Shown piece by piece: positions 39,015 through 39,330 of a DNA stretch of 39,330 nt (position 1 is its first letter; each line of letters begins with the position of its first letter). Source of the DNA: Nitrospinota bacterium (GTDB lineage Bacteria > Nitrospinota_A > UBA7883). The notes beneath the pieces were generated by a model. The model had not been told where the DNA came from, made no database searches, and worked only from the letters and a program-made list of their open reading frames with translations. The stretch spans positions 1 through 39,330 of the forward strand of contig JAOUPQ010000002.1 of assembly GCA_029879765.1 (NCBI GenBank), in the 5' to 3' direction. The position numbers and the translations under genes are program-made.

Positions 39015-39330
39015 CAGTGGGCCCCTCCCGATACGCATGCCGAATGACAGGCCGAATGGCACGCCGAATGGCAAGCGGAATGACACGCGGAGTGGCAGGC
39101 CGAATGACACGCCGAGTGGCAGGCGTTTATGGCGCCCACGGCGTCCACGTTCTGGAAACATCCTGTGTAACAAGCGTCGGACTTCATGAAGTCGTAATAG
39201 TTAGTGGAGAGCGCCTCCCCCACTTCGGTGGCCTCCAGCCCCTTTTCGAAATCGTTATACTCGCGATAATCCCGGGTGCCGTCATAATAATGGCGGTTGT
39301 AGTGGCGATAGTAGTTATTGCTGCGCCACT
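39014..39330 (-). CDS. Cys-rich repeat peptide/protein ending in (Ala-Cys-His-Ser)x7; candidate precursor substrate (5' end unresolved, frame open to the window edge)
   Basis: The frame reads ...NNYYRHYNRHYYDGTRDYREYNDFEKGLEATEVGEALSTNYYDFMKSDACYTGCFQNVDAVGAINACHSACHSACHSACHSACHSACHSACHSACVSGGAH*. Repeat units differ only at third codon positions in this frame. Possible internal starts are GTG 39223 (GGAGG 8 nt upstream) and ATG 39187. Confidence 0.6.
   Translation of the reverse strand, partial: WRSNNYYRHYNRHYYDGTRDYREYNDFEKGLEATEVGEALSTNYYDFMKSDACYTGCFQNVDAVGAINACHSACHSACHSACHSACHSACHSACHSACVSGGAH
39041..39124 (-). repeat. 12-nt tandem repeat x7 (plus a degenerate eighth unit at 39029..39040), with 24-nt higher-order structure
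   Basis: Units on the - strand are GCCTGCCACTCG, GCGTGTCATTCG, GCCTGCCACTCC, GCGTGTCATTCC, GCTTGCCATTCG, GCGTGCCATTCG and GCCTGTCATTCG, read directly from the sequence. Confidence 0.95.

Follow-up and report, generated by a model that had tools for sequence, protein, structure and literature searches.

At the end of a contig from a Nitrospinota bacterium, a 12-nt unit is repeated seven times, and each copy encodes Ala-Cys-His-Ser (ACHS) in one frame and part of an irregular peptide in another. The question that this locus raises is what is being kept there: a DNA repeat or a peptide repeat, in which frame, as part of which protein, and for which enzyme. The stretch of DNA analysed here, which we call the window, is the whole of contig C194 (39,330 nt). 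The features that matter for the argument are collected in Table 1.

Table 1. Features of the window that bear on the repeat, in the order in which the genes are read
Feature	Position	Strand	Remarks
C-terminus of large membrane protein	39014..39330	minus	last 104 codons and stop; ORF open at the contig end
ACYTGCF (CxxxC) motif	39155..39175	minus	conserved, immediately 5' of the repeats
ACHS array	39041..39124	minus	seven 12-nt units, differing only at synonymous third positions
Terminal eighth unit, ACVS	39029..39040	minus	GCA TGC GTA TCG
C-terminal GGAH and stop	39014..39028	minus	TGA = 39016..39014
5' extension of radical SAM ORF (spurious)	39015..39173	minus	repeat read out of frame
Shine-Dalgarno, GGGAGGGG	39022..39029	minus	7 nt before the radical SAM ATG, within the S-G-G-A codons of the tail; read from the sequence
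Radical SAM/SPASM enzyme, 433 aa	37713..39014	minus	true start ATG 39014..39012
320-aa membrane protein	36758..37720	minus	8-nt overlap between its start and the stop of the radical SAM gene
121-aa membrane protein, LemA, and M48 protease with N-terminal extension	34544-36761	minus	same direction

The repeat array and its reading frame

Read downwards from position 39124, the codons of the array are GCC TGC CAC TCG / GCG TGT CAT TCG / GCC TGC CAC TCC / GCG TGT CAT TCC for units 1-4 and GCT TGC CAT TCG / GCG TGC CAT TCG / GCC TGT CAT TCG for units 5-7. The initial annotation, made from the sequence of the window, had stated that the units vary at codon position 3 and nowhere else, and our reading of the minus-strand codons bears this out, each change being synonymous. 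Four of the 12 columns are variable, and the chance that all four would fall at codon position 3 of the named frame is 1/495; counted cell by cell, 11/11 departures from the consensus of the seven ACHS units are synonymous. The range originally given for the array, 39029-39124, comprises eight units, the last of which is degenerate (ACVS). A higher-order repeat of 24 nt had also been proposed, and it holds: units 1+2 differ from units 3+4 at 2/24 bases, and in Tandem Repeats Finder a period of 24 (3.6 copies, 85% matches, score 123) outscores a period of 12 (7.2 copies, 77% matches, score 97).

The same DNA can be read within ORF 37713..39173, where it becomes a 5' extension of the radical SAM gene and yields the drifting string (...RLPLGVSFGLPLRVSFRLPFGVPFGLSFGMRIGRGPLMDLAW..., RLPLGVSF...) that had been described for this frame. 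This alternative frame across the repeat is an artefact of ORF calling. The radical SAM gene begins at ATG 39014 and is coupled to the stop codon of the tail, whose TGA shares one base with the ATG (TGATG); in most of the other loci, among the best 80 considered below, an intergenic gap precedes the radical SAM start. On the two sides of the array, the flanking motifs are conserved as well. The CxxxC region has the consensus Y..F..S.AC.S.C in our alignment of the family (alignment A5), with a nearly invariant first Cys, and the ending ...VSGG[A/S]H is kept across phyla (alignment A5 and related loci). As a separate observation, the antisense frame at 39002-39328 (+) is also open, in the window (109 aa, rich in Arg, Met and Thr) and in the same-genus orthologue G001. 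This is a consequence of the set of codons used and does not point to a gene there.

Selection acts on the peptide of the tail

The central proposal of the initial annotation was that the peptide repeat, rather than the DNA repeat, is being maintained, and the comparison with an orthologue supports it. G001, whose protein is 81% identical to that of the window, has the same 7+1 units with zero indels. Over the 36 codons of the tail, the two sequences differ by 13 synonymous and 0 non-synonymous changes (dS 0.87, dN 0), as against 12 synonymous and 9 non-synonymous changes in the 68 codons upstream (dS 0.45, dN 0.067; Fisher p=0.006 for the two sets of counts). The last 104 codons taken together hold 25 synonymous and 9 non-synonymous codon differences. 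The same comparison confirms that ACHS is the true frame, as had been claimed. When the DNA of the tail is read in the two other frames, residues change at 13/36 and 12/36 positions, with 12/36 differing in the frame of the radical SAM 5' extension, and distant relatives have the same ending in the ACHS frame.

Variation within populations has the same character. Four further runs, from sediment or estuaries, are represented by Logan contigs, in which five variants fall in the tail (39023, 39038, 39089, 39095 and 39110), all of them synonymous and at codon position 3, with no indels listed. Among the public runs, those listed as containing the stretch are 12 DNA runs (sediment, estuary, soil), with no RNA run among them. 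Our data demonstrate that the tail is under strong purifying selection on its peptide and that its synonymous sites have been free to drift.

How the synonymous sites have drifted can be followed over 82 loci, namely the best 80 of at least 500 relatives together with G001 and the window. The fraction of same codons between units is 0.47, and 0.485 is predicted from the codon usage of each gene. Since overall sharing equals this expectation, the scrambling as such is what neutral drift under a peptide constraint would yield. When units are sorted by distance and compared with permutation within loci, adjacent units have a fraction of 0.427 (z=-5.6), units at distance 2 of 0.515 (z=+4.5), units at distance 3 of 0.461 (z=-1.2) and units at distance 4 of 0.495 (z=+1.7). 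The two-unit (24-nt) register is a feature of the whole family, and it fits both the higher-order repeat and the frequent alternation of ACHD and ACHS. From this pattern we infer occasional turnover in steps of 24 nt, along with a degree of loss among arrays in which one unit is the same as the next. Between loci, codon sharing is 0.457 at the same unit index and 0.458 at shifted indices, so that the loci are independent at synonymous sites. The further idea that scrambling may limit slippage finds support in one part only: adjacent units do share codons less than the permutations predict, but the overall level of sharing matches the neutral expectation.

These results also bear on the view that a tandem DNA repeat is kept here by slippage or conversion, or that the radical SAM 5' extension is the true frame. 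The periods of 12 and 24 nt found by Tandem Repeats Finder would agree with a DNA-level process, as would the codon sharing above chance of units two apart and the likelihood of some turnover in the 24-nt register. However, each synonymous column varies among the units and no other column does, codon sharing lies at the neutral expectation, and the peptide is identical between the window and G001 despite 13 DNA differences, while the other frames diverge at a third of their residues. Moreover, the Ser position is written with both TCN and AGY codons across the 82 loci, and DNA homology cannot account for a likeness of repeats that is encoded in this mixed way. The orthologue and population comparisons already refute this view, and we give it hardly any credence.

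The repeat is carried by a large membrane protein

In the direction of the gene, only 206 nt of the contig precede the repeat. Positions 1-160 of another contig from the same assembly, C353, match window 39171-39330 at 99%, and C353 continues into a 516-aa ORF (the first 516 codons) with an N-terminal signal peptide and a transmembrane (TM) helix. What we call the window's own protein is the join of C353 and C194, with two base differences in the 160-nt overlap. The overlap carries an ACT-to-AAC change (Thr to Asn) at 39203/39204 that other sediment runs contain as well; as it is a population allele, strain variation plausibly broke the assembly at this place. In G001, the orthologue is a single uninterrupted ORF with an identical tail.

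The initial annotation had implied a short precursor peptide, and this part of it has to be given up, for the frame belongs to a protein of about 570 aa (569 aa in the ORF of G001). One could still imagine that a precursor of 57-69 aa is translated from the internal GTG 39223 or ATG 39187 and released, the long ORF being incidental, as RiPP systems usually use short precursors. Against this, the frame of the tail runs on without a break into a body of over 500 aa, equivalent to the 516-aa ORF of C353, in G001 and in all of the best 80 loci. The region 5' of the repeats is variable in length and has no conserved Met (alignment A5), and no leader peptidase or exporter is conserved near the gene in the best 80 loci. 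A released precursor therefore appears very improbable to us, and we continue with the full-length protein as the carrier.

The AlphaFold2 model of this protein (mean pLDDT 82.5, from a 72-sequence alignment) begins with a signal helix; a beta-sandwich, modelled with confidence, spans residues 24-240, and a TM helix lies at 283-314. After the helix come basic residues (KYGRFVQRARIVK), a helical cytoplasmic domain and a disordered tail at 519-566. As modelled, the carrier thus consists of a cleavable signal peptide, an exported beta-sandwich, one TM helix and a cytoplasmic helical domain, in a DUF2207-like arrangement. With such a topology, the tail is cytoplasmic and within reach of a radical SAM enzyme. 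Searches with Pfam and NCBIfam gave no significant match to the 104-aa C-terminus or to the 516-aa body. The DUF2207 model itself (PF09972, cut-off 24.4 bits) matches neither the protein of C353 nor that of G001, and it matches 5/17 relatives weakly (best E 4.6e-5). The nearest clusters in the ESM Atlas are labelled DUF2207 at TM scores of 0.30-0.49. On account of these structural neighbours, and because PF09972 does not match, we describe the architecture as DUF2207-like and do not assign the protein to the family by model.

Two other resemblances were seen for the exported domain (residues 24-240 of G001), both with Foldseek E values of about 1e-7 to 1e-5: ribophorin I/Ost1 of the eukaryotic oligosaccharyltransferase, and the N-terminal domain of M1 aminopeptidases. 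The overall plan, with a luminal beta-sandwich, one TM helix and a cytosolic helical part, also recalls ribophorin I.

Distribution of the tail across bacteria

A word-indexed homologue search returned 2 proteins only, and an exhaustive HMMER search was required. With the 516-aa body as the query, which contains no repeat unit, HMMER found 269 representatives, and relatives at 26-43% identity end in (ACH[SDNGH])n-ACVSGG with 2-11 units. Among the 38 retrieved proteins of at least 430 aa (the matches and the query's own), 21 have an ending of this form, with S, D, N, G or H as the fourth residue. P0019 is a complete member of the family that lacks the tail, and no radical SAM gene lies downstream of it. 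Four further tail-less candidates are cut by contig ends (P0065, P0027) or stand on contigs too short to show their neighbours (P0055, P0025).

A pattern scan of 185,579 species genomes gave at least 600 matches, at least 500 of which encode relatives. The statistics on loci were taken on the best 80 of these relatives, with G001 and the window added where 82 loci are given; having been picked via the repeat pattern, these 80 carry no information on tail-less members. They represent more than 12 named phylum-level lineages, including WOR-3, Planctomycetota, Armatimonadota, Spirochaetota, Elusimicrobiota, Omnitrophota, Aminicenantes/Acidobacteriota, Hydrogenedentota, Sumerlaeota, Nitrospiraceae, Lentisphaerae, Gammaproteobacteria and others. 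Over the 82 loci and leaving aside the last unit, His occupies the third place in 586/596 units, the fourth is Ser in 479, Asp in 71, Gly in 19 and Asn in 18, and the last unit is ACVS in 81/82 loci. The invariance of Ala and Cys in this count is built into the regular expression, and alignment A5 shows both independently. One distant homologue of the membrane protein, L012 (G036:C22; 25% identity over the cytoplasmic domain), has a Gly-rich tail in place of ACHx.

A radical SAM/SPASM enzyme and a third protein accompany the tail

The gene that follows the tail encodes a radical SAM enzyme (PF04055, E 1.1e-25) with the CX3CX2C cluster motif and a SPASM domain (PF13186, 36.8 bits for a cut-off of 21.5). 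In 47 orthologues, Cys118, Cys122 and Cys125 are invariant, as are the SPASM residues Cys346, 364, 401, 404, 410 and 414, and Cys332 is nearly so; a SPASM domain is expected to use about seven Cys for its two auxiliary clusters. The N-terminal part, of about 100 aa, contains a conserved PqqD-like stretch (...LLIL.PNQAYKLN.TG..., read by eye from the 47-sequence alignment). The PqqD model PF05402 matches 9/47 orthologues weakly (best E 0.005) and does not match the window's own enzyme, so we describe this part as a putative RRE-like (PqqD/RRE) domain. The closest solved relatives by profile are the peptide maturases SkfB, PqqE, SuiB, CteB and anSME. No NCBIfam cut-off is reached by the enzyme, the best score being that of AhbD (140 bits for a cut-off of 500). 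A predicted complex of the enzyme with the 104-aa C-terminus scored 0.00; it was run without controls and is not evidence either way.

Searching the best 80 loci with tblastn, we found a radical SAM orthologue directly downstream and on the same strand in 77 of the 78 loci with room for it, these orthologues being full length and 40-60% identical. The sole exception, L028, has a run of N at exactly that spot. A homologue of the 320-aa membrane protein follows the radical SAM gene in 73/80 of these loci (tblastn), and where an ORF start could be modelled it begins at most 60 nt from the radical SAM stop in about 59 of 66. The only widely shared ORF clusters near the tail are those of the tail protein and the radical SAM enzyme, and tblastn adds the divergent 320-aa protein to them. 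Taken together, the tail protein, the radical SAM/SPASM enzyme with its RRE-like part and the 320-aa membrane protein form a cassette that is conserved across many phyla.

A set of 41 relatives gives the converse view. Within it, the tail protein, a radical SAM match above 600 bits and the 320-aa protein are found only in the genus of the window, the 320-aa protein being restricted to G000-G002. Paralogous radical SAM genes in these genomes reach at most 170 bits, except in G036, where one scores 302 bits. This gene (L101, G036:C9) was considered and rejected as part of the same system, since it lies behind a 176-aa membrane protein without a Cys tail and thus in a different context.

The 320-aa protein is predicted by AlphaFold2 (pLDDT 89.7) to have four membrane helices and a cytoplasmic alpha/beta domain. 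Foldseek against the PDB gave nothing at E<=0.001, and the protein matches no Pfam family. The alpha/beta domain is weakly like type III secretion chaperones (SycN/YscB, Spa15, SycT) and, in the same range (Z 6.3-8.2), like the C-terminal domain of T4 MotA, likenesses that we note as leads only.

Further downstream in the window, the LemA protein (PF04011, E 2.5e-61), three genes from the tail, and the M48 protease were also considered as parts of the system and were ruled out, both being found in 0/80 of the best loci. The 121-aa membrane protein is likewise missing near the cassette in these 80 loci. DUF2207 proteins are often paired with LemA (PMC12631010); the link seen in the window fits this pairing, yet it appears to be genus-specific.

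A tail that is probably modified and would stay on its protein

We put a probability of about 80% on the reading that the repeat is the selected tail of a membrane protein of about 570 aa and that its partner radical SAM enzyme would modify it, the modification being judged from gene content and sequence. The tail would then probably be a protein-tethered, enzyme-modified Cys/His module and no small peptide. In the mechanism that we propose, the radical SAM/SPASM enzyme would work on the cytoplasmic side, modifying the units of the membrane protein's tail one after another. Its likeliest products would be intramolecular thioether crosslinks of the Cys residues, of the ranthionine or sactionine type, as in CrpC/CrpA and PapB/freyrasin. 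The tail so modified would remain attached as a stiff chain of small rings with the invariant His residues exposed, and it might bind metals or do redox work at the membrane. As neither a leader peptidase nor an exporter is conserved beside the cassette in the best 80 loci, the product is probably not released from the protein. The unit has three fixed residues, Ala, Cys and His, and none of the invariant acceptors found in known ranthipeptides (Asp, Asn, Thr or Gln), so that another chemistry is possible, which could be a Cys-His link, a sactionine on Ala, or an oxidation of Cys.

An unmodified tail deserves to be weighed against this, in which the repeat binds a metal or an Fe-S cluster in the manner of a metallochaperone and the radical SAM enzyme has another substrate. 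The approximately eight Cys and seven His at fixed spacing do resemble a ligand array, and DUF2207 proteins generally have low-complexity cytoplasmic tails without a radical SAM partner (PMC10457818). However, such a tail would not call for the radical SAM orthologue that adjoins it in nearly every one of the best 80 loci with room, across many phyla, or for the joint absence of this orthologue and the tail protein in 38 relatives. The enzyme also has the make-up of an RRE-SPASM maturase (the RRE being putative), and the substrates known for this type are Cys-rich peptides or proteins encoded nearby; the cassette conserves no other candidate substrate. An unmodified tail thus seems unlikely to us, and modification by the partner enzyme is the reading that we retain in what follows.

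Relation to known systems

The closest characterised analogue of this system is CrpA/CrpC of Methanococcus voltae. CrpC, an RRE-rSAM-SPASM enzyme, installs ranthionine crosslinks in the C-terminal Cys repeats of CrpA, a protein of 28.8 kDa that is encoded next to it; a third protein is co-encoded, and no release step is known (PMC13692751, 2026). The window's system is built on the same plan, with a full-size protein as the substrate, Cys residues in C-terminal repeats, an adjoining RRE/radical SAM/SPASM enzyme (the RRE being putative here), a third co-encoded protein, no evident protease or exporter, and a suspected role related to metals. There are clear differences, and it is not a member of the same family. 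CrpA is soluble and repeats a 17-residue motif ten times, with C-x-x-Q/D, whereas the carrier described here is a membrane protein with a four-residue unit (A-C-H-S/D) and an invariant His. The archaeal system also contrasts with the present one in that the latter is bacterial, spread over many phyla and known from genes alone. The model of the CrpC family (TIGR04463, rSAM_vs_C_rich) gives 32.5 bits at window 38175-38684, for a cut-off of 525.

Ranthipeptides and sactipeptides (SCIFF/CteB, freyrasin/PapB, SkfA/SkfB) share with our system the radical SAM/SPASM or twitch maturases and the regular spacing of Cys residues. In these systems a short leader-core peptide is modified, cleaved and exported, and freyrasin contains six repeated Cys-X3-Asp rings. 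The repeat described here differs in having no fixed Asp, Asn or Thr acceptor, and none of the NCBIfam models of ranthipeptide or sactipeptide substrates matches the tail. The two marks of a classical RiPP precursor, a short stand-alone leader-core ORF and a conserved leader peptidase or exporter, are both absent from the locus.

Four-residue Cys repeats encoded beside radical SAM/SPASM enzymes are listed, by the names of NCBIfam models, as predicted targets in the CXXX-repeat (TIGR04115/TIGR04117) and ACGX-repeat (TIGR04340) systems, and the ACGX form is close to ACHS. The scores set the present family apart from both. The CXXX enzyme model TIGR04115 (cut-off 350 bits) gives matches of at most 32.8 bits in the window's own genome, none of them at the window's enzyme. 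The CXXX target model TIGR04117 (cut-off 50 bits) has no match in the same genome and a weak one (E 0.0014) in 1/17 family members, and the ACGX enzyme model TIGR04340 reaches 82.3 bits for a cut-off of 400. In the literature searched, we found nothing relevant on an ACHS-type repeat or on ACGX or CXXX repeats with radical SAM enzymes, and no description of a system joining an ACHx tail to a radical SAM enzyme.

With DUF2207 proteins (PF09972), the carrier shares the signal peptide, the large exported beta-sandwich, the TM segment and the large cytoplasmic C-terminus with its low-complexity tail. These proteins have been described with the same topology and a Gly/Ser-rich intracellular end (PMC10457818). 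Typical DUF2207 tails, being rich in Gly and Ser and having no radical SAM partner, are in this respect unlike the ACHS tail.

An unannotated cassette and its traces in databases

That the array has a true frame and is selected as a peptide is a sound result and, by itself, a routine one. The broader interest lies in the three-gene cassette, which occurs mostly in uncultured phyla, with relatives of the tail protein in at least 500 species-level genomes. The proteins that we looked up are named only "hypothetical protein" or carry a stray chaperone label. Our results favour, by a little more than even odds, a bacterial system, widespread but as yet unannotated, whose own radical SAM/SPASM family makes the cytoplasmic (Ala-Cys-His-Xaa)n tail of a DUF2207-like membrane protein into a permanently tethered, crosslinked module. 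The product would be a RiPP that never leaves its protein, perhaps serving to bind metals or in redox reactions; with Ala, Cys and His as the only fixed residues, the chemistry involved may not be that of known ranthionines. That radical SAM/SPASM enzymes can crosslink a whole protein through thioethers was first demonstrated in 2026, in a single archaeal system. If our reading is right, the family would extend it to bacterial membrane proteins, the four-residue unit would provide a large, conserved and simple substrate for the study of crosslinking, and DUF2207-like proteins would gain a first functional handle.

Assemblies tend to break at the repeat and ORF callers are misled by it, so that database entries for the family are often incomplete or translated in a wrong frame. 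Repeat-bearing loci are broken in other genomes too, as with the N-gap in L028 and the missing radical SAM gene of G002, and many database members are truncated as a result. A last example is P0026, which ends in a Pro/Ala/Thr-rich string (PAT.P...) that resembles the ACHx repeat one base out of frame. To judge from its sequence, this ending probably goes back to the assembly from which it was taken, through a frameshift error or a miscall.
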